Assembly: GCA_963815195.1 (NCBI GenBank)
Contig: CAWFGE010000008.1
Coordinates: 448,001-512,000 of the forward strand
Length of the DNA stretch: 64,000 bases
Origin: an uncultured Planctomycetaceae bacterium
GTDB taxonomy: Bacteria; Planctomycetota; Planctomycetia; Planctomycetales; Planctomycetaceae
Direction: 5' to 3'
In this document: piece by piece, positions 2,934-30,691 of the stretch
Layout: each line of letters begins with the position of its first letter
Numbering within the stretch: the stretch's first letter is position 1
The notes under the pieces: generated by a model
Database searches by the model: none
The model's input: only the letters and a program-made list of their open reading frames with translations
What the model was told of the DNA's origin: nothing
Program-made: the position numbers and the translations under genes

Positions 2934-3224
2934 ATGACCAGGAAGCGTCGAGTTTTGGGGTCCGCGTTCAAAGCCAAGGTGGCGTTGGCGGCGGTCAAAG
3001 GGGATAGGACGACGGCTCAGTTGGCGTCGGAATTTGGCGTCCACACGAGCCAAGTCACGGCTTGGAAAAAGCAGTTGTTGTCGGGAGCCACTGAGTTGTT
3101 CACGGATGGCCGACGTAAGCGATCCGACGATCAATCGGCCAATGAGCAAGAACTCTATGAACAAATCGGCCGGCTGAAAATGGAAGTCGAGTGGCTCAAA
3201 AAAAAGTCGCTGACGCTGGATTAA
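2934..3224 (+). CDS. IS3 transposase OrfA (HTH)
   Basis: AFKAKVALAA...LASEFGVH..QV..WKKQ...LYEQIGRLKMEVEWLKKK. A8G slippery run at 3198-3206 for -1 frameshifting. Confidence 0.93.
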   Translation: MTRKRRVLGSAFKAKVALAAVKGDRTTAQLASEFGVHTSQVTAWKKQLLSGATELFTDGRRKRSDDQSANEQELYEQIGRLKMEVEWLKKKSLTLD

Positions 3225-4039
3225 GCCACGAGGTTTTGCGGGCATGGATCGAACCGAAGCATTCCACGTTGAGCGTGTCGCGTCAGTGCGATCTGTTGGG
3301 ATTGGCGCGGAGCAGTTGGTACTACGAACCTGGCGGCGAGACCGCGGAAAATTTGGAACTGATGCGGCGAATCGACGAGGAATACACGCGGCATCCGTTT
3401 TATGGTTCTCGCAAGATGGCCGAGTTGTTCGGCGTGAATCGCAAGCGAGTGCAGCGGCTGATGCGGCAGATGGGAATCGAAGCGGTTGGACCGAAACGCC
3501 GCACGACCAAACCGGGGCGCGGACACAAGATTTACCCTTATTTACTGCGGAATGTGGAGGTTCTCCGGCCCAACCAGGTGTGGTCGAGCGACATCACTTA
3601 CATCCCGCTTCGCCACGGGTTTTTGTATCTCGTGGCAGTGATGGACTGGTTCAGTCGCTACGTGTTGAGTTGGCGATTGTCGAACACGTTGGAGGGGAGT
3701 TTTTGCTTGGAGGCGTTGGACGAAGCCTTGTCGATCTCGCGGCCGGAGGTCTTCAACAGCGACCAGGGCAGCCAATTCACGGCGATCAAGTTCACCGAGC
3801 GATTGGAACGATTGAATGTCGCGATCAGTATGGATGGAAAAGGACGGTGCTTGGACAACGTATTCATCGAGCGGCTGTGGCGGAGCGTGAAATACGAAGA
3901 GGTTTACTTGAAGGATTACACGGATGGTTGGGAGGCCGAGAGAAGCCTGCAGAGTTACTTTGAGTTCTATTGTGAGGAACGGATTCATCAGTCGCTGGGT
4001 TATCAAACGCCGGCGATGATCTACGAAGGAAAAGATTGA
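3191..4039 (+). CDS. IS3 transposase OrfB (DDE integrase core)
   Basis: WSSDITY, FNSDQGSQF, DNVFIERLWRSVKYE motifs; -1 frame relative to OrfA. Confidence 0.95.
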   Translation: MAQKKVADAGLSHEVLRAWIEPKHSTLSVSRQCDLLGLARSSWYYEPGGETAENLELMRRIDEEYTRHPFYGSRKMAELFGVNRKRVQRLMRQMGIEAVGPKRRTTKPGRGHKIYPYLLRNVEVLRPNQVWSSDITYIPLRHGFLYLVAVMDWFSRYVLSWRLSNTLEGSFCLEALDEALSISRPEVFNSDQGSQFTAIKFTERLERLNVAISMDGKGRCLDNVFIERLWRSVKYEEVYLKDYTDGWEAERSLQSYFEFYCEERIHQSLGYQTPAMIYEGKD

Positions 4040-12198: not shown

Positions 12199-15100
12199 TC
12201 ACCGAAACAGCATCCCCGCGTAGCCCACGACGCGGGATTTTTCGCCCGAGACATCGGCGGACGTGGCGTAGGCCACGCGGCGGCTTTGGGTGAGTTTCCC
12301 CAAATGCGCGAGCGTTTTCAAGACAATCACCGCCGGCCGCATCCCGCACATGCTGATGTGGTTTTCGGTGCAGGTTTGATAGAGGGCATCGGGATCGAGT
12401 TTGTCCAACTCGGCGAGCGCCAATCCGTCCAACCGGCGGTTCTCGGCATCGGGGGCGAAGTGGTTCATGTCGCTGGAGATGATGAAGAGCGGCGGTTCGT
12501 CCGTCTCGGCGATGACTTCCGCGAGTTTCTCCGCGAATGTGTTTAATTGATCCAACCGCCCGCCGCCGATGGTGATCCCGACGATTTTCGTCTTGGGAGC
12601 CAGGCGGTGAATCAGCGGCAGTTCCACTTCGATTCCATGCTCGGCCTGATGGGCGGCGGCATCGAGCTTGAGGCCTGGAATCCTTTCGGCCAGACGCTTG
12701 GCAAGCCCCTGATCGGATTCCAACTCGCCGGTGGGCAGCGACCACTTGGCGTAGGGAGCCACCGCCCAGTCCACGCCGTGGGGCGTGTGTTTGGGGCCGA
12801 TGAGAATGACCGTTTTGGGAAACTCGATTTGCGCGAGCACGTCGCCCGCGATTTTTCCCGAATAGACCCAGCCCGCGTGGGGAACCATCGCGGCGGACCA
12901 CCCGGATCGTTCCGCGTTCGCGGGAAGCAGCTCGTCGAGCATTTGGTTCACATCGTCAGCCGAGGCCGGATAGAACGTGCCGGCGACGGCGGGCAGGCGA
13001 ATGTCGGGGCCGGTCACCGAGCGCGGACGGTCCACGACCTGCCCGCGCGGATGGGAGGACATGACGCGCAAGCTCATCACGAGCGTCAGGTCCGGCTCGT
13101 CGATTTCGGCAAGCTCCATCGCTTCTTTGAAGAGGATCTCGGCGTTTTTTTCATCATCGAAGACCCAGGCCCGGCGGTTGCCTTCCGCCACGAGAATCGC
13201 GCGGTCGCCATCAATGATGCCCGCCAGATTGGGGTCGCCCGCGGTGCCGTGCATGTTGGGATCGGTGAGCACCGTCATCGAGACTTTCACTTCGTTCGGC
13301 GGGATGCGGTGATTCGCGAGCGCCCGGGCCAGTTCCTCGCAGAGCGAAAACATCGTGGACTGGAGCGGCATCGTCTGCCGCAGGTTCAGCCGCGTGCTCA
13401 CGAGTTCCTGACCCGATCCGGGAAGGCTGACCCGCAGGCTGACGGCGTTGACGTTGCCGTCGGAGACCGAAGGACAATAGTAACGCGGCGTGGCACCTTG
13501 CATCAACGTTCGCAGCGTCTCGCCGCCGAACTGGGCATAGGCGGCCACGTCCCGCGGCGAGAACAACGGCGGAGCCAGCGGCCAGTTGGCGGTTTCTTCC
13601 TCGCTGAGCACTTGGCCCGCGTGCTCGCTGCCTTCGAAGCGGAACACCTGCGTCTCCTCATCCCGCCAGGCGGTCGCGGGCAGGCCGGCTTTGAGGCAGG
13701 TGCGGTTGAGAAACTCTTCCGCATCCCAGCCATGCTCGATCGCCACGCCCGGCAGCAACAAACCTCGCACAGAGCTGCGGACGACTTGCAAGCCATGCCG
13801 GCCGATGGTGACTGCGCCGATGCGGTCTTCGCCCTGTTCCGCGATTTCTTCGGGCGGCCCCAACAGCCAAACGTCCAAATCGAGATAAGGCAATTCGTTG
13901 CCGGAGATCCGCGGAAAGCGGGGATCGTCCGTGGCCGTGCGAACCGCCGCGAGCGTGAGGGACTGAAACAGCGGCATCACCACGCCGAGGTTCCCACAGC
14001 ACGACCGCAAATGCCCGCCGCGCTTGGCCGTGACGAAAACGCCCGACACCGGATGCTGGGCCAATTCGAGATGTTCCTCGCCGAACAACTCGGCCGGCGA
14101 GAATTGCAGGGAGCGTTCCAGGCTGGCCGCTTTGAGAACCCGCCCCGCCGCCTTGACGACCCGCGCGGATTGCTCGGCGGTCAAATTCGGCAAAGCCAAA
14201 GTGGAAGTCGTCATACCAGCACCTCCTTTTGTTTTGGTTTCAGCGTCTTTCGTCGATCGTTCTTGAACGGCCGATGCGGGCGAAGTCTCCCGGGGAGCCC
14301 GAGCGAACTGCCGCATGTCCACGGGCTGCCGCTGCCGGCCCCAGTCGCCGGGCTCCTCATCGAAATGCCCCGCGACGCGGGCCCCGCAAAACCGGCAGTG
14401 CGAGCCGTCGAGGTTGTATTCGCCGAGCTCGTACCAGTTGCGCTCGATGACAACTTTGTGACAATTCGGACAATACGTGCTCTGCCGCAAGGCGTCGTTC
14501 ACGTTCCCGGTATAAACATATTTGAGCCCCGTGGCCAGGGCGATTTCGCGGGCGGCGATTAGAGTCTCCGGCGGCGTGGGGCCTCGGTCCCGCATGCGGA
14601 AATCGGGATGAAACGCCGTGAAGTGCACCGGCACCTCGTCGCCTACGTTCTCCAGAATCCAATCGCACATCCGCTGGAACTCGTCCGCGTTGTCATTGGC
14701 CTGCGGGATGATCAGGTTCGTAATCTCAAACCACACGTCCGTTTCACGCTTGAGCCAGCGCAGCGTGTCGAGCACGGGCTGAATATGCGACAGCGTGAGC
14801 TTGTAATAGAATTCCTCCTCGAACGCTTTGAGATCCACGTTCGCGGCGTCCATTTCCGCGTAGAAATCCTCGCGGGCGGTTTCGGTGATGTAGCCCGCGG
14901 TCACGGCGACGGCTTTGACTCCCTCGGCCCGGCAAGCGCGGGCGGTCTCGATCGCATACTCGGCCCAAATCACCGGGTCGTTATAAGTAAAGGCCACGCT
15001 TTTGCAGCCGAGGGCTTTTGCGGCGCGGGCGATGTCCTCCGGGCCGGCCCGTTCGCTGAGGCGTGCGATCTCGCGGGATTTGGAGATGTCCCAGTTCTGG

Positions 15101-15435
15101 CAGAACTTGCAGCCCAAATTGCAGCCCGCCGTGCCGAAGGACAGCACACTCGTGCCGGGATAAAAATGGTTGAGCGGCTTCTTTTCGATGGGGTCGATGC
15201 AGAACCCGGTGCTGCGGCCGTAGGTGGTGAGCATCATCTGGCCGCCGATGTTCTGCCGGACAAAGCAGAACCCGCGGTCGCCGGGCTTGAGCACGCATTC
15301 GCGCGGGCAGAGGTCGCAGACGATTTTGCCGTCTTCCGCATGCCACCACTTGCCGGGGTACAAAAACGGCCGTTCGGCCGGGTCAATTTCCGAATTCGCC
15401 AAAATGGTCAGTTGTCGTTCTTCTGTTGTGGACAT
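12199..15435 (-). CDS. amrS: AmmeMemoRadiSam triple fusion: radical SAM (AmrS) + AMMECR1 (AmrA) + MEMO1 (AmrB)
   Basis: DPIEKKPL and CNLGCKFCQN (radical SAM); LRSCCG, DPRFP, GLLLPGVA (AMMECR1); PAVAGTFYP, PHAGWVYSG, EHGIEV, SSDMNH, VGYAG (MEMO). Confidence 0.92.
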   Translation of the reverse strand: MSTTEERQLTILANSEIDPAERPFLYPGKWWHAEDGKIVCDLCPRECVLKPGDRGFCFVRQNIGGQMMLTTYGRSTGFCIDPIEKKPLNHFYPGTSVLSFGTAGCNLGCKFCQNWDISKSREIARLSERAGPEDIARAAKALGCKSVAFTYNDPVIWAEYAIETARACRAEGVKAVAVTAGYITETAREDFYAEMDAANVDLKAFEEEFYYKLTLSHIQPVLDTLRWLKRETDVWFEITNLIIPQANDNADEFQRMCDWILENVGDEVPVHFTAFHPDFRMRDRGPTPPETLIAAREIALATGLKYVYTGNVNDALRQSTYCPNCHKVVIERNWYELGEYNLDGSHCRFCGARVAGHFDEEPGDWGRQRQPVDMRQFARAPRETSPASAVQERSTKDAETKTKGGAGMTTSTLALPNLTAEQSARVVKAAGRVLKAASLERSLQFSPAELFGEEHLELAQHPVSGVFVTAKRGGHLRSCCGNLGVVMPLFQSLTLAAVRTATDDPRFPRISGNELPYLDLDVWLLGPPEEIAEQGEDRIGAVTIGRHGLQVVRSSVRGLLLPGVAIEHGWDAEEFLNRTCLKAGLPATAWRDEETQVFRFEGSEHAGQVLSEEETANWPLAPPLFSPRDVAAYAQFGGETLRTLMQGATPRYYCPSVSDGNVNAVSLRVSLPGSGQELVSTRLNLRQTMPLQSTMFSLCEELARALANHRIPPNEVKVSMTVLTDPNMHGTAGDPNLAGIIDGDRAILVAEGNRRAWVFDDEKNAEILFKEAMELAEIDEPDLTLVMSLRVMSSHPRGQVVDRPRSVTGPDIRLPAVAGTFYPASADDVNQMLDELLPANAERSGWSAAMVPHAGWVYSGKIAGDVLAQIEFPKTVILIGPKHTPHGVDWAVAPYAKWSLPTGELESDQGLAKRLAERIPGLKLDAAAHQAEHGIEVELPLIHRLAPKTKIVGITIGGGRLDQLNTFAEKLAEVIAETDEPPLFIISSDMNHFAPDAENRRLDGLALAELDKLDPDALYQTCTENHISMCGMRPAVIVLKTLAHLGKLTQSRRVAYATSADVSGEKSRVVGYAGMLFR

Positions 15436-15649
15436 GTTGGGGAGGAGTGAATTGGGGGAAGGGGAAGGAATGCCGAGAGGCGAGGCGTCCGCGCGGTCCC
15501 GGCTTTGAAGAGAACCGCTTATGAAATGAGACAACATTCTCAGGAGAGAACCTGAAAACTGGGAGCGGAAGAATTCGAAGAGCGGACCAGAGGAAATGAC
15601 AGCTGGCCAAATGTTTCATTTATCGATTCAACGCGGTCTCGGGGAGCGG

Positions 15650-17056: not shown

Positions 17057-17184
17057 CCGAATATGTCCTTCCACGATTTCCAATGACCGCGGGTGTGGTT
17101 CGTTCCTGAATTGGACCGTTCCCATCACAATAACCGGGAACCGGCCGCACCGCCACGCCGCGTCCAGTTTCTGAAACCTGTTTG

Positions 17185-17386
17185 AAAACCTGAGCGGTAG
17201 GCGCTAGCCTCCGGTTTCGATGAAAGGATACTCACAGAATCAAGACCGGAGGCTAGCGCCTTGCCGCTCATGTTTGCAGAGACCGGAGGCTACGCCTTGC
17301 CGCTCATGTTTGCAGAGGCCGGAGGCTAGCGCCTTGCCGCTCATGTTTGCAGAGACCGGAGGCTAGCGCCTTGCCGCTCAGGTTTT
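17185..17386. repeat. REP-like element with one arm tandemly amplified (37-bp unit, about 4 copies)
   Basis: One left arm TGAGCGGTAGGCGCTAGCCTCCGGT and four inverted arms (A/G)CCGGAGGCTA(G)CGCCTTGCCGCTCA joined by constant TGTTTGCAGAG. Confidence 0.9.
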
Positions 17387-17438
17387 TAGAGGAATCTGTT
17401 TTGAAACACCTTGTGAGGCTTCCGCCGAGGAGCATTTG

Positions 17439-18710
17439 ATGAAAGCGATCGTCACCGTCGGCTTGGGGTTTGGCGACGAAGGCAAAGGGGCCACGGTGGA
17501 TTTTCTCACCCGGCGGTATCGGGCCGAGGTCGTGGTGCGGTATTGCGGTGGCTCGCAGGCGGGGCACAACGTCGAACTGCCCGACGGAAGCCGGCACACA
17601 TTTTCCCAGTTCGGAGCGGGCACCCTGGCCGGGGCGAAAACCTATCTGGGGCCGCGGATGATCATCAGTCCCGCCACGCTGCCCCCCGAAGCCGAGCATC
17701 TGAAGCGCCTGGGCGTCGAGAACCCCTATGCCCTTCTGACCGTGCATCCCGATTGCCTCGTTTCGACGTTTTACCACATCACGATGAACCGGCTCCGCGA
17801 GCTGTCGCGGGGCGAAGATCGGCACGGTTCATGCGGTTTGGGCATCGGCGAAACCAGGCATTATTGGCTCCGCTACGGACAAGACGCGGTGTTCGCCAAC
17901 GACCTTCGCGACCCGCGCACGCTCCGGGCGAAGCTCGCCCTGTTGCGGGACCGCGTCCTGCTCGAGATGCAGGAACTTCCGACGCTCGATGAAGAATCGA
18001 GCCGGGCAATTCATGAAACCCGGCCGGCCGAGGAAGCCGGCTCGCTGCAATCGGCGTTTCAAGGAGCGACTCTGTCCCCCCGTCTTCCCGAGGCTCAGAC
18101 GCTCGTTTTTGAAGGTGCGCAAGGCGTGCTCTTGGATGAATGGAAGGGCTTTCCTCCCTACACCACCTGGAGCACTGTCACCACGCATCACGCCTGGGAA
18201 TTGATTGCAGAGCACCAAATCGAGGAGGTGACGGTGCTAGGCCTCACGCGGGCCTATGCAACCCGCCACGGTTCGGGGCCGTTTCCGACGTTCGATCCAG
18301 AACTCACCGCGCGGACGTTGGATCCCGGAAACCCCGAAAACCCCTGGCAAGGCCGGCTCCGCTGCGGGGCGCTTGATCTGGTGTTGCTCAACTATGCCAT
18401 CTCCGCCTGCCCGATCGACGGGTTGGTTGTCAACAACCTCGATCAAGTTCCCAAAGCGATCCCCGTGTGCCGGCGGTATGCGCGAGCAAGTTCCTTCCCC
18501 GTCCCCAAGAGTCTCAAAGAACAATCCGAACTTACAGAACGACTTCTGTCCGCGCAGCCGGAGATCGAGCCTCGGTCCCCTTCCGAGTTGCTCGAAGATC
18601 TGAAACAGTTTGCCCCCGTCGTTCTCACGGCCGATGGGCCAACGCACCAACACCGGGAGATCCGCACGGATCAGACGATCCTCCCCGCGGACCCTCAGCC
18701 GTTGTGTTAG
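17439..18710 (+). CDS. Divergent adenylosuccinate synthetase-like protein
   Basis: GFGDEGKG, QAGHNV, GSCGLGIG, FEGAQGVLLD, RAYATRHGSGPFPT; non-canonical aspartate-binding loop. Confidence 0.88.
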   Translation: MKAIVTVGLGFGDEGKGATVDFLTRRYRAEVVVRYCGGSQAGHNVELPDGSRHTFSQFGAGTLAGAKTYLGPRMIISPATLPPEAEHLKRLGVENPYALLTVHPDCLVSTFYHITMNRLRELSRGEDRHGSCGLGIGETRHYWLRYGQDAVFANDLRDPRTLRAKLALLRDRVLLEMQELPTLDEESSRAIHETRPAEEAGSLQSAFQGATLSPRLPEAQTLVFEGAQGVLLDEWKGFPPYTTWSTVTTHHAWELIAEHQIEEVTVLGLTRAYATRHGSGPFPTFDPELTARTLDPGNPENPWQGRLRCGALDLVLLNYAISACPIDGLVVNNLDQVPKAIPVCRRYARASSFPVPKSLKEQSELTERLLSAQPEIEPRSPSELLEDLKQFAPVVLTADGPTHQHREIRTDQTILPADPQPLC

Positions 18711-19630
18711 AAGTCCGCGATCTTTCCGAGTTCGCTCAAGACTCGACGGGCGGCGGGGCTGATGAGCCGGCCGTCCAGGCAGCACTCGGCGCGGACTTCG
18801 TTCGCGGTGACCCAGCGGTTCGCCGCCGCATTGCTGACTCGCTGCTCGGCGTTGGGGTTCAGCGAGACCTCGAATGCAGTCATTTGATACCGGGTGTCCT
18901 GCCAGGCGCTCGCGGACCAGGCTGCAAAATCCAACAATCGATCGCCGCCGACGGCATAGTCGCTCGGAGCGAGATCGAGCTCTTCAGAGATCTCCCGCTG
19001 AAGGCAGTCCAGGGCAGGCTCCCCGGTTTTCGCGTGCCCGCCCACCAAAAAATATCGGCCCCAGCGTTCGTTGTATTGAACGAGCCATTGCGGGGAATTT
19101 TTGACCCGGCGTTCCATGATGGCGATTCTCGATTCGGAACTCCGCAACCCGCCCCGGACCGGCGGTGGGAACGAGCCGCCATGATCTTGGGACGCCTCGA
19201 TCAATCGGGCGACGACCCGGCGAGCGGTCGGCGAAATCGGCCGCCGGCCGGGATCGAGCACCTCGTCCCGAGCCAGCCATTCCGCGATCAGTCCCGGCGG
19301 GACCACGCCTTCCTCGACGGGAAAACCGAAGACCTCGAGATGGTAATGCTGCACCCGGCCGGAGCGGTCGCTTTGCTGCAATTCGGGCATGTCGCATAAC
19401 AGCCCCGCTTCTCTTTGCGTCGTCTTGCCGAGGACTTCGGCCACGTTGCGCAAAGCAGCATCCGAACCGGCCTCCCGGCGTTCGGCCCCGGCGTCGAGCC
19501 CCGCCGATTTTGTGCGAATTTTTGTCATCGGCAGCGTAAACGCTCCCCACGAGGGATTGTGAACCAAGAGCAACTGTTCGCCGTGATACACAACGGTCAC
19601 AGCCACATCGACGCGCGGGATCTCTGGCAT
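18707..19630 (-). CDS. Tandem Nudix-domain protein
   Basis: The C-terminal domain has the Nudix box GHAKTGEPALDCLQREISEELDL; the N-terminal domain has degenerate AALRNVAEVLG. Both domains end in ISP.ARRV. Confidence 0.8.
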   Translation of the reverse strand: MPEIPRVDVAVTVVYHGEQLLLVHNPSWGAFTLPMTKIRTKSAGLDAGAERREAGSDAALRNVAEVLGKTTQREAGLLCDMPELQQSDRSGRVQHYHLEVFGFPVEEGVVPPGLIAEWLARDEVLDPGRRPISPTARRVVARLIEASQDHGGSFPPPVRGGLRSSESRIAIMERRVKNSPQWLVQYNERWGRYFLVGGHAKTGEPALDCLQREISEELDLAPSDYAVGGDRLLDFAAWSASAWQDTRYQMTAFEVSLNPNAEQRVSNAAANRWVTANEVRAECCLDGRLISPAARRVLSELGKIADF

Positions 19631-19731
19631 GGCAAGGCTTCCTGAATGATCAACAGGTCTTGGAAAAGTGCTTGTGAGTATAACAATTCCCCCATCAACT
19701 TGGTCCGCAAAAATGGGCGGGACGGGAGGTG

Positions 19732-20718
19732 TCACGATTCTTGAAAAGTGTTCCGCAGTAACTGGAGGGCGTTGTTGAGCGACTCATCCCTCGAGTTCTT
19801 CCGCCAAATCAGGCGTTCGCTGATGGCAAATGCCTTTCCCAGCCGGCGGATCACAAAGGTTTTCCGGTCCGCCGAAGTGAGCAGCGCCTCGGGCAAAATC
19901 GCCACGCCCACCTGCAGGCGGGCATATTCGCGGGCCGCGTCCCAGCCGCCGCCTTCCACGGCAAAATACAACTCCGCCGAGGGACGGCACGCGGCTTCCA
20001 ATTGTTGCCGGATCCCGGAATCGCGGTCCAAGCCGATCAATTCCCATTGCGGCAGGTAGCTCTTCAATTCCCGCGCCTCCAGCGGCCGGTTCGGGGCATA
20101 GGTTTTCAGGTCAAGGCCGGCGGGCGTCTTTTGATGGGCAATCGCGGCCAGATCGTACTGGCGCAATTCCTCGACCGACAGGACCGAAGCGGGATGCTCG
20201 GCGTCTTTCAAGACGTTTCGGATCTGTTGGGGAGTATGGGTCACAACCGCCAGATCGAACGTCCCGTCGGCCGTTTTGAGGATTCGTCTCTTTCCCCGGT
20301 CGATCCGAATCTCCAGTTCCACGTCGGGATAATCGCGTTGAAACTGGACGACAAACTTCGGCAGGCCCTGGCTCGCCGTAAACGTCCCGCACCCCAAATG
20401 CAACACCTTCGACGTGGGGGCTTCGGCGGCGATGTATTCCAAGATGCGGTCGTATTGTCCGATCAGTTGCCGCATGGCCGGCAGGACCGCTTTGGCATCA
20501 TCCGTCAAAGCCAGCGTTTTTCCCGAGCCATGCAATAATTTTTTGCCGCAGACGCGTTCGGTTTTGAAGATTTTCAACCGGCGGGTGACTACGGGCTGGT
20601 GATCCCCCAATTCCCGGGCCGCGGCGCTCACGCCTCCGCAATCATGAAAGGCGAGCAGGTTGCGGATCGCTTCGAGCGAGGGGCCGCGACGTTTGGCGGG
20701 GCTTCGATTGGCCGTCAT
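19732..20718 (-). CDS. LysR-family transcriptional regulator
   Basis: GGVSAAARELG..QPVVTRRLK HTH, LALTDDA, FQRDYPDVEL, FDLAV, GVAILP. Alternative start at 20769. Confidence 0.9.
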   Translation of the reverse strand: MTANRSPAKRRGPSLEAIRNLLAFHDCGGVSAAARELGDHQPVVTRRLKIFKTERVCGKKLLHGSGKTLALTDDAKAVLPAMRQLIGQYDRILEYIAAEAPTSKVLHLGCGTFTASQGLPKFVVQFQRDYPDVELEIRIDRGKRRILKTADGTFDLAVVTHTPQQIRNVLKDAEHPASVLSVEELRQYDLAAIAHQKTPAGLDLKTYAPNRPLEARELKSYLPQWELIGLDRDSGIRQQLEAACRPSAELYFAVEGGGWDAAREYARLQVGVAILPEALLTSADRKTFVIRRLGKAFAISERLIWRKNSRDESLNNALQLLRNTFQES

Positions 20719-21297
20719 TCCGCGTTCCTTGTTTAAACCCACGAGACAGCCCGGCAACGGCTGTGTCATTTCAATATACGAAAAAGTATATCAAAACCAT
20801 TGTCTATTGCAATAAAGTATATTTCGTATTTATGCTTTTGAAAAAAGATCCCTCTCCAAAGGCCCAGCCGAAATGGAAGTGACCACGTCTCAAAGGCCCG
20901 GCAAATACCAACAGGAGAAGCGCCCATGAGAAGCCCACCGAAGAAAACTCCCGCGCTGTTTCGCGGCGGCGAGGTGCCCGCTCGCCCGGAGCGCGCTTGG
21001 AAAACTTCGGGAGAAAGGGCGGATTTCCAATGAATCCGGGACTGAAACGCTGTATTGTCGTTAGAAGACCCCCAGCAAACGGCCGCCCTGCTCCGACGGT
21101 TTATTAGGCTGTGTCCGGTAATCTCTCCCTGGCCCGAAGCGCAAGCGAGGGAAGCCACGTTCCGGGAAAAATCCTCGCTCGCGCTTCGGGCCAGGGAGAA
21201 TCATCCCAAAATCCGATTCACCGCATCCAGACGAACCCTTTTAACGAAAAGTGGCACAGACATTTTTTGCCGACTTCGAGTTGAAATCGAGTTTTCA

Positions 21298-21612
21298 ATG
21301 AATCCACAAGACTACCGGCCGAAGCCGATCGATACCTCGCACGTCGAGTTGTCCGAGACGATTGCCGCCTTGACGGAGCGACTGGCGGAAAATGCCCATG
21401 ACATCTGGGCCGCGGCCCGCATGGCGGACGGTTGGACGTACGGGACCGAGCGCAAGGACAAGGAGAAGAAACATCCGTGTCTCATCCCGTACGCCGACCT
21501 GCCGGAGAGCGAGAAGCAATACGACCGCAACGCCGCCTTGGAAACGCTCAAAGCGATTATCTCGCTGGGGTATCGCATCGAGCCTGGCGAATGTAACACG
21601 ATGAATCAATGA
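21298..21612 (+). CDS. Stand-alone RyR (ryanodine receptor repeat) domain protein
   Basis: YRPKPIDTSHVEL...ERLAENAHDIWA..R..DGWTYG..R....K.HPCLIPY.DLPESEK.YDR..A.ETLKAI..LGY.I matches the RyR repeat consensus. Confidence 0.93.
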   Translation: MNPQDYRPKPIDTSHVELSETIAALTERLAENAHDIWAAARMADGWTYGTERKDKEKKHPCLIPYADLPESEKQYDRNAALETLKAIISLGYRIEPGECNTMNQ

Positions 21613-23191
21613 ATGACGTCTTGCAAACTCAGGATCGAAATATGTCCGATGGCACAACTCCGCAACGTAAATTCGTGGTTTTTGTCAGTTCCGTGACAAC
21701 GGAATTCAGCAATCTCCGCGAAAAACTGTGGGAATCCATTTACAAGGCGGGGCACATCCCCGTGGTGCTCGAAAAATATTCGGCCGCGCTCGCCGACGTG
21801 CGAGAGTTCATTGCAAACGAAGTCGCCGATTCCGACATCTTTGTGTTTATTTTGGGGCGCGAATACGGACGCGGTTTTCAACCCGATCAGGCCTCGTTCA
21901 TCGATGCCGAGTTGCAACAAGCCGTTCGTTTGCAGATTCCGATCATTTTTTTGAAGGCGGATTACACAACTGCGCACGAAACGCCTTTGTCGCCCGAGCA
22001 ACAAAAAATCGAAGAACTCTATCATTCCCTGTTGGAGAAGGCGCAAAAGCATGCAACCCGAATCATTACGTTTTCGCCGGCAAAAGAGATCAACGCGGAA
22101 TTTGGCGATTTAAGGCAGAACTTTACGAACGCGCTTCACGACCTCGCAGGTTCGCTCCGGACCGGGGGGTGGGTTCCGGCTTCCTGGTTTGAACGAATGA
22201 GCGAACAGATCAGCCTCGGCTCAACCGTCAGCCAAAATCCGTTCTTCGAGCGTTTCGTGAGAAGGCTCGACTCGTTTCAGATTTTGTCTCGCCGCACAGT
22301 GACCTTCGGTGATCAAAAGGAAATGATTGCGAACTTCTTTTGGGACACGATGTTGCCGCGGCTGCCTGTATCCGGCGTGAGGCGGTTGTTTTTCGAGTCG
22401 GGTTCGACGATCGCTTATTTGTCGTATGAATTCGTCCAGCGTACGAAAAAGCCGTGGGTCCGGCATGGATCGACGAAACGGAGCTGGTCGTCAATACGAA
22501 TAACATCCTGACGTACCTGGATTTTGTGCTAGCCGACCCGTATGCCGATCCGATTGATTGCCGTTTGTGGCCTCCGGCACCCGCCGATACCTATTACGGC
22601 GCAACATTTGGGCGGTTGACCTCACTCATTGAGTTATGGCCCCCGGCGGAGCCGCGGGAATTGGCGAAGGATGCGGCCAAAGCGTTAAACGACATGGCCG
22701 ACGCCTTGGAATTTGGAGACGACACGTTGATCCTGATGACCGCATCGGGTTTGGACAACTCGACCGCGGGATTCCAAGGGCCGCATGTGGGAAGTTATTA
22801 CAATATGCTCATTAAGAAGTTCCTGTTGTCCAAAGACGTGCCGACAGCTCTTGTTTTGGAGGACGCCAAAGTCTTTAAGAGCTTCCATAAAGGAAAGTGT
22901 TTTGGCGTATGCGACGGTGGCGGACCCGATAACTGGGAAAGCATCTGCAAAACAAAGCCATTGGCGATCGTAACGTGCGCGTCGAAAGAGAATGCCGAGC
23001 AGCGCCAAGCGGACCTGCGGGACCTCACCTTTGAATTTCAGCATATCGAACCGTTGCCATCCATGCCGGATGATGTGGACGCTTCCGGGGATTTTTTTTG
23101 CATTCTGGCCGCGAATCAGCAGTTTGCGGAACGGTTCGAACTTGACGGAAAGATTAACACCGCGCCTCAAACAAACGCACGAAGAACGTGA
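21609..23191 (+). CDS. DUF4062 (TIR-like) domain fused to a DeoR C-terminal-like sugar-phosphate sensor domain; frameshift near 22462
   Basis: VFVSS..E..R...SDIFVFILGREYG...AELQQA. Then KEMIA, LFFESGST, VVNTNN, LMTASGLD, LEDAKV. One missing G joins ORFs 21609-22511 and 22454-23191. Confidence 0.7.
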
Positions 23192-23206
23192 AAGGGACGC
23201 ATCGAG

Positions 23207-24706
23207 ATGGTGACGTGGACTCTCAAGGCCCGCCGGCGATTGCGGAGCTTGATGGCGCGCCGGCTGTGCCCGCCTCGCGTGATCGGCGACTTAGAGGCCG
23301 AGGCGGCGGATCCCGATCCCGTTGTTCCAGAACGTGCCGCCCTGGCGGCTTTGATGAACGAGCGGCTGATGGAACTGGCACAGATCCTCGAAGAGGTCTT
23401 CGGGGAAGAGGCGCACGTCGTTGTGCAGGACGTGCTCTTGGGATACCGGCGGCACGAGGACCGCTACATTTTGCTCGTCGAGGTGTCGGGGGGAGATCGG
23501 CCGGGAGGGCACGTCGTCAAGATCGGCGCCTATCACGAACTCTTCCCGGAACTGGCCGCTTGGGAGTCGTGCAAGCCCGACGGCCTCGTCCACGATCTGG
23601 TGTTGTTGCCGCTCGAGTGCGGCTATGAGGCCGAGGGAGACGATCCAAATCGCCGAATGGCCCTCTTGTATGGAGCGGCTCATCAATTGATCGGCGTGGA
23701 GTCCATCACGACCTTCGAGGAAGCGGCCCTCACTTCGGTGCTCCACGGCTGGCCGATGTTGGAGTCGATCGGCGTCGTGTTGTGGGAATTGTACGAGCGG
23801 CTGGGGCATTTGCTGTATTACGTCCAATTCGAATACGACCCCGCCAAGGAATACGCGCGGGATCGCCGGAACCGCTATGTCCTTGAGATCGGGCACTTGG
23901 AAGAGAATCTTCGGCTGTGGCACACGGATCCGTTTCGCAACATTCAGCGGATCGTCAACGCGGCCCTCCAGAACCGAATGGGCGGCGGGCAGTTTATCAA
24001 CCCGGTGGATTATTTGGAGAAGACCGTTTTGCAGATCGTCAACTGGTTGAAGGAGGACGGCAAAGTTCACAGAAATGCCAGAGACAACGGACCCCGCCCC
24101 GAAGACCTTGTTCCCGGCATGATGCGCGGCTGCGCGCACGGCGACCTGCACGGGCGGAACATCCTCGTGGGACAGGTTCGCGGACGCGTGCTGTGGCCCA
24201 CGGTTTTCGATTACGAAGACATGGGACCGTGCAACTGGATCGGCTGGGATTTCGTCAAGATGGAAACCGAATTGAAAATCCGGGCCTATCCCAGTCTGTT
24301 CCTGGGGCCATTGTCGCTTCCCGAGAAAGACGGCCCCGAGGACGAGAGCGAAATTCACCCGCACTATGTCGAATCGATCGCGAACTTTGAACAGGAATTG
24401 GCGTCGGAAACCGAACGCTGCCATCAAAACAACCGCTGGCCGCGAGTCGCGGAAGCCGATTCCGCCGAGGCGAGGTTAAAGGCTGTGCTCTTGGAAATTC
24501 GGCACCGAGCCGCGATTCATCTCGGGGACAACTTCGGCCGCCCGAAACGCTGGTTGGAAGAGTATTACTTTTTGTTGGGCTGTTACGGGGTGTCCGTGGC
24601 CCGGTTCGGCAATTTGATCGACAAGCAAACCGCCGCGGCGATGATTTCCGCAGGCGTGGCGTTTGCCCGCCTCAACTGGCCGCGCACCTATTCGGGCGGC
24701 CGCTGA
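23207..24706 (+). CDS. APH/protein-kinase-fold phosphotransferase (TCAD9-like)
   Basis: HVVKIG....E, CAHGDLHGRNILV, VFDYE, WDFVKMETELK. Confidence 0.75.
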   Translation: MVTWTLKARRRLRSLMARRLCPPRVIGDLEAEAADPDPVVPERAALAALMNERLMELAQILEEVFGEEAHVVVQDVLLGYRRHEDRYILLVEVSGGDRPGGHVVKIGAYHELFPELAAWESCKPDGLVHDLVLLPLECGYEAEGDDPNRRMALLYGAAHQLIGVESITTFEEAALTSVLHGWPMLESIGVVLWELYERLGHLLYYVQFEYDPAKEYARDRRNRYVLEIGHLEENLRLWHTDPFRNIQRIVNAALQNRMGGGQFINPVDYLEKTVLQIVNWLKEDGKVHRNARDNGPRPEDLVPGMMRGCAHGDLHGRNILVGQVRGRVLWPTVFDYEDMGPCNWIGWDFVKMETELKIRAYPSLFLGPLSLPEKDGPEDESEIHPHYVESIANFEQELASETERCHQNNRWPRVAEADSAEARLKAVLLEIRHRAAIHLGDNFGRPKRWLEEYYFLLGCYGVSVARFGNLIDKQTAAAMISAGVAFARLNWPRTYSGGR

Positions 24707-25556
24707 TGGAATACGTTTTCAACGTGATCCCTTTCCCAAGTTTGATTTTGGAGAATCGATTGATGCCTGCGACCGCCGGCGAAGTGCTGGAGCATCTCTA
24801 TCCCGGATTTCAGTGGCCTTTGGAAATCGCCATCGGATGGTTGAGAGATGGCGATCCGCAAAAGTTGAAGGAAGCCATCGCGCTTTTGCGCGGCCTGAGG
24901 AAGAATTATCCCGATGCGCCGCAGGTCGGCCAGTGGCTGGTCCTGGCGCTGATTGAAAACCGCCAGCCCAAGGAGGCCGAAACGGTCCTCGATGAAACGG
25001 AGCGATTGTTTCGGTACCGCGATGAGGAACTCTTGTGCCGCTGGGGCCGGCTGTTTCGCGAGCAGGGGGATCAAAATCTCGCGGATGTGGCTGAGGATGA
25101 GACCAACCGCGAAACCGCGATCCTCCTTTACCGGAAGGCGCGGGACAAATACGAAGAGGCTGCGACAGTCCGGAAAGGGCATTACCCGCTGATCAACGTG
25201 GCCGAGTTGTCCCTCACCCTGGCCGGGCTCGTCGATGCCTCGCATCGCGAGGAAGAACTCGCCCGCGCGGAGACCGTCGCCCGCGCCTGCTCGAAACGCG
25301 GGACAAGTGGCCCGTGGACCTGCCCGACGACGAAGTCTGGCATTTGGCCACAGCGGCCCAATGCGAAATGATCCTCAAGGATTGGGAACGCGCCGCGGGG
25401 TTCTATCAACACGCCGCGCGCCACGTTCACTGCCGCGAACGAGACCGCAAGTCGATCCGCCAGGGATGCCGCCGCACGAAAGAAGCCTTCGGGCGGTTCG
25501 ATGTGACGGATTTCGGGCCGTTAAACGATGAGACGGCGGTGTTCGATTCCAATTGA
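24706..25556 (+). CDS. TPR protein, TPR-S/DUF4071-like; frameshift near 25290
   Basis: ELLCRWGRLFR, YRKA..KYEEA, HYPLINVAEL, DEVWHLATAAQ..MILKDWERAAGFYQHA. ATG overlaps the kinase stop (TGATG). Confidence 0.7.
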
Positions 25557-29581: not shown

Positions 29582-29995
29582 ATGAACGACCAGCAGTTTA
29601 CACCCGCCCAGTTGTTGGGCTACGTCGACGAACTTTTGCCGGTGGAAATGATGACCGCCATCGAAACGGCGCTGCGGGAATCCGAAGCCCTCCGCCGGCA
29701 CGTGGGGCAGCTCATTCGCCGGCGAGACGCCGGGGAACATTCGGTGGGGCAAATCTGGCAGCGGCTCCGATTGAGCTGCCCAGACCGCGCGGAGTTGGGC
29801 AGTTACCTCTTGGGATCGTTGCCCGATGAGGAACTGGACTATATCGATTTCCACCTGCAAACCGCGGGCTGCCGATTTTGTGCCGCCAACCTGGAAGACT
29901 TGCGGGAATCCTCGCAATCGCCCGCCGGCTCAAAGCAACGGCGAAAGCGATTCTTCCAATCCTCCGCCGGCTATTTGCCCCGCGGCGAGGATTGA
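29582..29995 (+). CDS. Hypothetical protein with anti-sigma-like zinc-finger motif
   Basis: LSCP..LGSYLLG...FHL..GCRFC (HxxxxCxxC); GAGGAG RBS upstream. Confidence 0.65.
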
Positions 29996-30089
29996 ATCCT
30001 TTCCCCTGCGATCCTGTCGATTCGGAACGTTTCCCTATTTCGAAGATAAGATTCATCCCCCGCGATCCTCGTTGATCTCAAAATATCTG

Positions 30090-30691
30090 ATGACTTCTAA
30101 AATGAAACGGCTCGGGCGGGTTTGTGTGTTTTGCGGGTCCAAAGCCGGGGAGGACCCGGCGTTTCGCGATGCGGCCCTTGAGTTGGGGCGGCGGCTTGTG
30201 GCTTCCGGGCTTGAATTGGTCTTTGGCGGCGGGAGCGTGGGGTTGATGGGCACGGTAGCCGATGCCGTCTTGGACGCGGGCGGGCATGTCATCGGCGTGA
30301 TCCCCGAAATGCTGGCCACCGTGGAGCTCCTGCATCCCCGCGTGCCGGACATGCGGCAGGTCGACAGCATGCACACCCGCAAAGCGACGATGGCCGAACT
30401 CTCCGACGCCTTCATCGCGCTCCCCGGCGGCTTCGGCACGCTGGAAGAGCTGTTCGAGATCATCACCTGGCGCAGCTCGGCATCCATCACAAACCCATCG
30501 GTCTGTTGAACACGGCGGGCTATTACGATCCCCTCGTCCAAATGGTGGAGCACATGATCTCTGCCGGCTTCATCAAGCCCCATAACCGCGACCTGTTCCT
30601 CGTGGAAAGCGAGCCGCAACCGCTCCTCGACCACCTTGCCAAACATGTCATGCCCCAAACGCCGCGGACGCTCCGCCCCGAAGAGACGTAG
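30090..30691 (+). CDS. LOG-family (TIGR00730-type) nucleotide phosphoribohydrolase; frameshift near 30470
   Basis: [43 protein letters not shown]. Confidence 0.9.

Follow-up and report, generated by a model that had tools for sequence, protein, structure and literature searches.

Introduction

DUF4062 enzymes have been reported to hydrolyze NAD+, yielding ADP-ribose, and to defend their hosts by abortive infection (10.64898/2026.05.01.722283), and the accessible portions of two further papers agree on this NADase activity, with Nudix, RyR, kinase and DeoR all unmentioned (10.64898/2026.09.04.749371, 10.64898/2026.06.25.731849). For Thoeris, 29 types have been listed, in a paper whose accessible main text does not mention RyR, Nudix, kinase or LysR (10.64898/2025.12.03.692087). 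Phage RyR-domain proteins cleave or sequester 2'/3'-cyclic ADP-ribose (2'/3'-cADPR) via H75, W78, H100 and D117, four ligand residues that are also kept in animal RyRs (PMC13232231), and in RyR Tad the residues that bind gcADPR and cADPR are H129, W132, H154 and D171 (10.64898/2026.06.04.730250). APH kinases and Nudix proteins have been described as sporadic effectors of ternary systems (PMC7159879). Here we analyze a locus from an uncultured Planctomycetaceae bacterium in which Nudix, LysR, RyR, DUF4062, kinase and TPR-S genes are neighbors. It lies in a stretch of 64,000 nucleotides (the window) that corresponds to positions 448001-512000 of contig C8 of the source genome G000 (8.87 Mb, 25 contigs). 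The original prediction had grouped seven contiguous genes of this locus, including a PurA-like one, into a single nucleotide-centered conflict system; we find that six of them form a recurring cassette, five as a conserved core and one in a variable slot, and that the PurA-like gene is an unrelated neighbor.

Five gene families form a conserved cassette

We collected loci via the kinase, so that its constant presence is built into all of the following counts. The kinase-anchored set comprised 79 metagenome loci (from the best 80 of 113 confirmed matches) and 7 genome loci, which collapse to 62 non-redundant clusters. TPR-S was found in 53 of these clusters, RyR in 31, a Nudix protein of either type in 26, TIR/DUF4062 in 23, LysR in 13, purA in 1 and DeoR-C in none. 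Restricting the tally to the 15 clusters with flanks of at least 5 kb at each end gave, in the same order, 14, 8, 10, 11, 5, 1 and 0. Our profiles had been trained on these loci, and we therefore retested them on 20 new loci from 19 previously unseen genomes of the class, 14 of them with flanks of at least 5 kb and 6 shorter ones that were set aside. The new set is not fully independent, as loci L134 and L145 are close kin and genome G525 is congeneric with one training genome. TPR-S was present in all 14 long loci, together with NudB in 13, NudA in 12, RyR and LysR in 11 each and TIR/DUF4062 in 8, and neither a purA-like gene nor DeoR-C was found. With the shorter loci included, the counts out of 20 were TPR-S 19, NudB 15, NudA 12, RyR 14, LysR 12, TIR/DUF4062 10, and again zero for purA-like and DeoR-C. 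As background we used 432 20-kb windows of the source genome outside the locus, which contained no kinase, TPR-S, RyR or NudA, a single NudB, a single LysR, five TIR and one DUF4062 match. The LysR subfamily is dedicated to the cassette (11/14 long new loci versus 1/432 background windows).

A reverse test on 401 genomes of the phylum found the full kinase in 5 and the Nudix pair in 4, all 4 of which are kinase holders; in G241 the kinase, located at a contig end, and the Nudix pair are on separate contigs. The kinase is patchily distributed (22/351 class genomes, 1/3 genus relatives), and one of its relatives is labeled Thermoguttaceae. No kinase relatives were found in viral contigs, and a contig scan with a single kinase query returned one weak locus only. 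The common gene order is LysR divergent from NudA, then NudB, a variable gene, kinase, TPR-S, RyR and more variable genes. The window locus is rearranged relative to this order: its two Nudix copies are fused in one protein, and their gene follows LysR. Several of the families are joined in single proteins, namely NudB-kinase-TPR-S, RyR-kinase-TPR-S, NudB-TIR-NB-ARC-TPR and NudB-DUF4062-ATPase-TPR, with NudB joined to TIR- or DUF4062-STAND proteins in loci L055, L088 and L130. The left half of the locus (LysR, tandem Nudix) and its right half (RyR, kinase, TPR-S), which had been predicted to belong together, are found together in different genomes at frequencies well above background and in some are fused. 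These findings together establish the five-family core of LysR, NudA/NudB, APH-fold kinase, TPR-S and RyR as a genuine conserved cassette. Its partners are typical conflict domains, among them TIR/DUF4062-STAND, RelA/SpoT-SLOG-RyR, SLATT and caspase.

Predicted activities of the core proteins

The kinase model (predicted local distance difference test score, pLDDT, 92) adopts the fold of the APH/choline kinase superfamily, with choline, sugar, methylthioribose, peptide and aminoglycoside kinases tied as fold matches at Z 12-14.5. All marks of the superfamily are present (the fold, a VAIK-type lysine, an HxDxxxxN loop and a Mg-binding aspartate), and the catalytic residues are nearly invariant: K105 in 99/101, H311 in 101/101, D313 in 100/101, N318 in 101/101 and D335 in 101/101 sequences. 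We infer from these residues that the kinase is active. Its TCAD9 score of 37.9 bits is below the cut-off of 40, and an Atlas search returned TCAD9/APH again and nothing further. At E <= 0.001 the family comprises 336 representatives. Among 150 listed of these, 120 have at least 400 residues; a TPR-S fusion is present in 74 of the 120, a NudB fusion in 6 (including 4 that also carry TPR-S) and a RyR fusion in 1. These counts were cross-checked with Pfam on 29 representatives. Complex prediction for a cognate pair of kinase-TPR-S and RyR from G525 gave a score of 0.00, which speaks neither for nor against an interaction.

In the tandem Nudix protein the Pfam match (E 1e-11) covers the C-terminal copy, NudB, only, and the N-terminal copy, NudA, is shown by alignment to relatives. 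NudB has an intact box (G198-x5-E-x7-REISEEL), which agrees with GX5EX7REUXEEXGU except for an aspartate in place of the last glycine and whose R, E, E and E are found in 29/29 NudB rows. The NudA box is degenerate, with the box glutamates missing in the NudA rows. The PADLOC profile PDC-S07 matches the Nudix protein weakly (E 1e-4). In some loci, a divergent protein of ~300 residues with a weakly NudA-like N terminus stands in for NudA, fused to RyR in L056 (Table 1). A lone NudB-type Nudix gene with an altered box is located at C22:306842-307300 of the source genome, directly behind two large metabolic-looking genes. For LysR, homologue starts make 20718 the probable start rather than 20769, to which the longest open reading frame reaches. 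When the regions upstream of 27 LysR genes were searched for motifs, only coding sequence and no shared operator emerged.

In the RyR protein of the window, H34, W37, H59 and D76 have the same spacing as H75, W78, H100 and D117 of the phage protein RyDEP and follow the PF02026 pattern H, W(+3), H(+25), D(+42). They are kept in 26, 26, 23 and 26 of 26 cassette RyRs, respectively. The protein is a predicted binder or glycosidase of cyclic ADP-ribose, and sequence alone does not tell a sponge from an enzyme among RyRs.

The DUF4062-DeoR gene occupies a variable slot

We identified 6 intact homologues of the DUF4062-DeoR protein (507-665 residues). A model of one of them, P0151 (pLDDT 71), has an N-terminal TIR fold (matches at Z 13.0-13.4) and a C-terminal DeoR-C/RpiA fold, which superimposes on Escherichia coli DeoR (7l6l) with Z 11.9 and a root-mean-square deviation of 3.0 over 171 aligned residues, and matches 1uj4 with Z 9.7. 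The predicted DeoR-C domain, for which Pfam gives no match in the window protein, is thus borne out by the modeled fold of an intact homologue. A candidate catalytic glutamate, E101, lies in an S-F-I-D-A-E stretch, with a glutamate at or beside this column in 6/6 homologues; its pairing with E97 of KpSwz is by motif and not by direct alignment. As NADase activity has been shown for the family, the protein is a predicted NADase.

The gene has a GC content of 0.52-0.53 compared with 0.59-0.63 in its neighbors and looks like a recent plug-in. Rather than a fixed member of the system, as originally predicted, it is one of many swappable partners, with DeoR-C found in 0/86 and 0/20 kinase loci. The slot is usually occupied by TIR- or DUF4062-STAND-TPR/WD40 proteins. 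Other variable genes encode TrkA_N-RyR membrane-type, RelA/SpoT-SLOG-RyR, TPR-S-cyclase, SLATT, Roc-COR and caspase-like proteins and several unknowns. Proteins with a TrkA_N (RCK) domain are found beside the cassette in L012, L013, L067, L087, L120, L127, L129 and L139, four of them with a C-terminal RyR by Pfam, and are candidate nucleotide-gated bacterial channels. RelA/SpoT-SLOG-RyR fusions lie beside the cassette at L097:167-2701 and L100:423-2942, and in L097 TPR-S is, in addition, followed by an HD-domain gene. A recurring protein of ~370 residues directly behind TPR-S, with similar N termini at L131:11025-12125, L133:11267-12400 and L137:11429-12547, is blank in Pfam for all three and in PADLOC/NCBIfam for those tested. 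It is a candidate new effector.

The PurA-like neighbor belongs to another operon

The PurA-like protein shares the PurA fold family, the GDEGKG loop and the EGAQG motif, and differs from PurA in an altered loop where the canonical enzyme binds aspartate. Its NCBIfam purA score is 164.6 against a cut-off of 402, and its PurZ score 38.7 against 300; the canonical purA of the source genome sits on contig C2. The PurA-like gene accompanies none of the 20 new genome loci, and the single purA among the 62 clusters is of the canonical type at ~30% identity. In the 401-genome sample, the genomes that encode its 6 closest relatives all lack the kinase, and there the home operon consists of kinase-like and vWA-like genes followed by the purA-like gene (6/6 loci), 'vWA-like' being a motif reading for which Pfam is blank. 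An orthologue in the genus relative G002 (71% identical) has no cassette gene in the 40 kb examined around it. In the source genome itself, C12:914219-916937 (L152) encodes NrtR (Nudix plus winged helix-turn-helix), the kinase-like and the vWA-like protein in one operon, with no purA-like gene there. The NrtR family is reported to sense ADP-ribose (PMC9503650), and the C12 genes look like a separate uncharacterized ADP-ribose-regulated operon, which in the 6 other genomes includes a PurA-family ligase. The consistent home operon, together with the partners on C12, indicates that the PurA-like gene is a displaced member of another operon. We therefore rejected its predicted membership in the system, given its absence from kinase loci and its own kinase-vWA operon.

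Layout of the locus and assembly errors

All seven predicted open reading frames are present (Table 1), and Pfam agrees with the proposed domains (Adenylsucc_synt, NUDIX, LysR, RyR, DUF4062, TPR-S, with TCAD9 below its cut-off). The junctions are likewise as described: the right four genes are tightly coupled (ATGA overlap at 21609-21612, 15-bp gap at 23192-23206, TGATG at 24704-24708), the PurA-like and Nudix stop codons overlap at 18707-18710, and an AT-rich stretch separates the divergent genes. The latter contains two sigma70-like sites on the minus strand (20844-20816 and 20812-20785; shuffle mean 0.3). By tblastn each of the seven genes is single-copy in the source genome, where the only matches beyond the locus are the canonical purA on C2 and the lone Nudix gene on C22.

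Table 1. Features of the locus (window coordinates) and the protein that replaces NudA in related loci
Feature	Position	Strand	Evidence	Standing
PurA-like protein (adenylosuccinate synthetase family)	17439..18710	+	Pfam E 8e-57	neighbor, outside cassette
Tandem Nudix protein, NudA (N-terminal) and NudB (C-terminal)	18707..19630	-	Pfam NUDIX	core
LysR regulator, cassette-specific subfamily	19732..20718	-	Pfam HTH_1 and LysR_substrate	core
AT-rich divergent promoter region	20770..20850	.	sequence and two sigma70-like sites	
Stand-alone RyR (Repeat12) protein, 104 residues	21298..21612	+	Pfam RyR E 6e-37	core
DUF4062 (NIR/TIR-like) and DeoR-C/RpiA-fold fusion	21609..23191	+	Pfam DUF4062 E 5e-16, fold matches	variable slot
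APH/choline-kinase-fold kinase, TCAD9-related	23207..24706	+	TCAD9 E 2e-9, model, catalytic residues	core
TPR-S protein, one gene	24706..25556	+	Pfam TPR-S E 7e-12	core
NudA-replacing protein, ~300 residues	L056:6640-7839, L045:2652-3575, L047:12504-13364, L097:7628-8527			

Two frameshifts noted in the original prediction are both present in the assembly. An extra G behind position 25286 is seen in contigs from two runs, X1 and X2 (depth 7.2 and 2), which belong to 2 different studies; X1 may be the source sample. The frameshift there is an assembly error, and TPR-S is therefore one gene. The break in the DUF4062-DeoR gene at 22464-22465, where one base is missing, is not covered by any run contig listed; 6/6 longer homologues are continuous across it, which makes an assembly error likely, a true pseudogene being the alternative. 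A genome-wide test of the frameshift load found 0/16 split orthologues. The canonical purA (C2:31546-32821) and a LOG/SLOG-cluster gene (window 29826-30658) each appear to be split across frames, which suggests further single-base assembly errors; the error rate would thus be low, yet not nil.

Elsewhere in the window, 17183-17402 contains a REP-like palindromic repeat with four head-to-tail copies of ~37 bp and an inverted copy upstream. The 37-bp repeat (17243-17402) has 55 matches of at least 25 bp in the source genome and many in G001, and on account of these 55 genome-wide copies we rejected it as a part of the system. An inverted repeat with 27-nucleotide arms (96% complementary) lies at 21124-21199, between promoter and RyR; G001 and G002 contain similar sequence at multiple sites, and it is therefore probably a second dispersed repeat. 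A prophage origin of the locus was rejected. A single protein of 1,100 residues at 12199-15537 fuses radical SAM, AMMECR1 and Memo domains, which we take to be of the AmmeMemoRadiSam type, and a transposase pair (HTH_Tnp_1 and rve) at 2934-4036 would be of the IS3 type.

Proposed role of the cassette

We propose that the cassette core may be the control and clean-up unit of an NAD+/ADP-ribose defense, joined to swappable sensor-effectors, a reading that in our judgment is evenly balanced between right and wrong. A trigger, probably infection, would switch on the NADase, which would convert NAD+ to ADP-ribose as described for its family. RyR might then bind ADP-ribose-type products or open cyclic ones, as phage RyRs do, and thereby set a threshold. 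Going by their motifs, NudB would split ADP-ribose into AMP and ribose-5-phosphate, and NudA would bind without catalysis. The TPR-S-gated kinase would phosphorylate a small-molecule product of the pathway, a substrate that is our guess. The DeoR domain, which is of a sugar-phosphate-binding type, and LysR may read the breakdown product, a ribose phosphate, and provide feedback on the NADase and on transcription. The PurA-like gene would play no part in this pathway. The predicted nucleotide-centered conflict role fits, and the chemistry points to NAD+/ADP-ribose rather than to a purine made by PurA.

Several observations weigh against this reading. In G002, the kinase-TPR-S-RyR genes, LysR and the purA-like gene are spread over three contigs, which places LysR apart from kinase-TPR-S-RyR. 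The DUF4062 enzymes tested so far give linear and not cyclic ADP-ribose. Our profiles detect no TIR/DUF4062 gene within ~10 kb in 6/14 long loci (5/14 when a Pfam match in L133 is counted), and the core is thus not dependent on one. Conversely, one further genome among the 351 of the class (G662) encodes the same DUF4062-DeoR protein but lacks the kinase, so that the protein may work alone. The RyR ligand residues, being shared with animal RyRs, do not prove binding of cyclic ADP-ribose, and a PDB sequence search does not fix the Nudix substrate (best Nudix match E 0.16). Known defense genes were not noted among the called genes of the window, most of which were unscanned.

The loci without a TIR gene would be accommodated if kinase-TPR-S itself were the sensor and messenger maker, phosphorylating, upon a trigger, a nucleotide or ribose metabolite such as ADP-ribose on the free anomeric carbon, with RyR effectors as readers, Nudix as eraser and TIR/DUF4062 as an optional downstream component. 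This alternative is less probable. It agrees with the almost constant pairing and frequent fusion of kinase and TPR-S, with the RyR domains fused to TrkA_N and RelA/SpoT-SLOG in the same loci, with the TPR-S domains that also head nearby cyclases, and with nearest folds that include the anomeric-carbon sugar kinases methylthioribose kinase (Z 13.9) and N-acetylhexosamine 1-kinase (Z 13.4). The tie of these folds with peptide-modifying and aminoglycoside kinases speaks against it, as no substrate follows from tied folds, and so does the collection of loci via the kinase, which builds in its constancy. A different function altogether, a non-antiviral signaling unit (stress, metabolite-repair or developmental) with which planctomycetes clear damaged NAD/ADP-ribose derivatives, with TIR-STAND genes gathering around it as in a defense island, appears unlikely to us. 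A LysR of its own is more usual for a metabolic operon, the lone NudB-type gene on C22 sits in a metabolic setting, and several loci consist of the core only amid housekeeping genes; the fusions of NudB to TIR/DUF4062-STAND and of RyR to RelA/SpoT-SLOG, the patchy spread and the variable partner slot argue for conflict instead. The complete seven-gene system, in which the PurA-like enzyme modifies or recycles the signal, is very improbable. It draws on the adjacency with overlapping stop codons and on the home operon of the PurA-like gene, which lies behind NrtR in the source genome, so that the enzyme may touch related chemistry, and it conflicts with the absence of the gene from new loci, its canonical-type counterpart in the one cluster, its kinase-free holders and its orthologue away from the cassette.

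Returning to the control and clean-up reading, the cassette suggests that NAD-based immunity has an off-switch or a signal-editing unit of its own. It also points to an uncharacterized kinase family that is predicted to be active and has a defined context. A more specific idea, that the TPR-S-gated kinase makes a phosphorylated ADP-ribose-type messenger, which host RyR reads and the Nudix pair erases, with TIR/DUF4062 proteins as plug-ins, is rather doubtful. If true, bacterial RyR domains that function on the host side would be seen for the first time, and the ligand pocket of the animal ryanodine receptor would have a plausible source. The papers found characterize prokaryote-side RyR domains solely as weapons that phages use against cyclic ADP-ribose, and the natural ligand of the animal Repeat12 pocket is unsettled. 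A host RyR beside NADases, Nudix proteins and, in relatives, channel-like TrkA_N-RyR proteins makes cellular RyR sensing approachable with a protein of ~100 residues.

Comparison with known systems

PADLOC and NCBIfam return no named system for the window proteins, an outcome that, for PADLOC, the original prediction had named as supporting novelty. PADLOC ThsB profiles match the DUF4062-DeoR protein of the window with E 0.004 and 0.015 and P0151 with 2e-5, and Pfam favors DUF4062; ThsA has no match in PADLOC 2.0, a library older than Thoeris types V-XI. We found no description of the cassette in the literature, in a search that scarcely covered subscription journals, so that its novelty is provisional. 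Burroughs 2015 (NAR) and Burroughs and Aravind 2020 (J Bacteriol) reportedly defined TPR-S and nucleotide-centered conflict networks and may already list this neighborhood. None of the terms sought occur in PMC8195603. The ARG-centered systems described in the accessible part of PMC9503650 do not include this cassette.

Among the systems compared, MoxR-vWA ternary systems share with the cassette an APH-superfamily kinase, with a weak match to their TCAD9, and a planctomycete spread (PMC7159879). Unlike in these systems, the fixed partners here are TPR-S, Nudix and RyR. MoxR, vWA and VMAP are absent from the seven genes, and MoxR, vWA and a third component are absent also from the four flanking genes scanned. 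Thoeris resembles our loci in having TIR-type enzymes near putative readers of ADP-ribose signals, with SLATT and ion-channel-like effectors in related loci. In contrast to Thoeris, the locus shows no ThsA-type match in PADLOC 2.0 and weak ThsB matches only, and it is the TIR protein that varies while kinase, TPR-S, Nudix, RyR and LysR are conserved. The DUF4062/NIR systems Swarożyc, Evangelion, Vulcan, Vesta and PsAvs2 resemble the DUF4062-DeoR protein in that an N-terminal DUF4062, which has a TIR-like fold and in which a glutamate is conserved, is joined to an auxiliary domain; relatives of the cassette carry DUF4062-STAND-TPR proteins. They differ in comprising one or two genes, and the auxiliary domain here is of the DeoR-C/RpiA fold. 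The partners known from Swarożyc, Evangelion, Vulcan and Vesta (winged helix-turn-helix or short AUX, HEAT, alkaline phosphatase) were not encountered, HEAT and phosphatase being absent among the seven genes. The cassette is apparently unnamed and not assignable to any of the named families compared, and it resembles NAD-based immunity. Finally, the RyR protein belongs to the same Pfam family (PF02026) as the phage RyDEP glycosidase and the RyR Tad sponge, with four equally spaced ligand residues. RyDEP and RyR Tad are phage anti-defense (anti-Thoeris) proteins, whereas the window RyR is chromosomal, flanked by housekeeping genes and in an operon with a predicted NADase, and would thus be on the side of the host.

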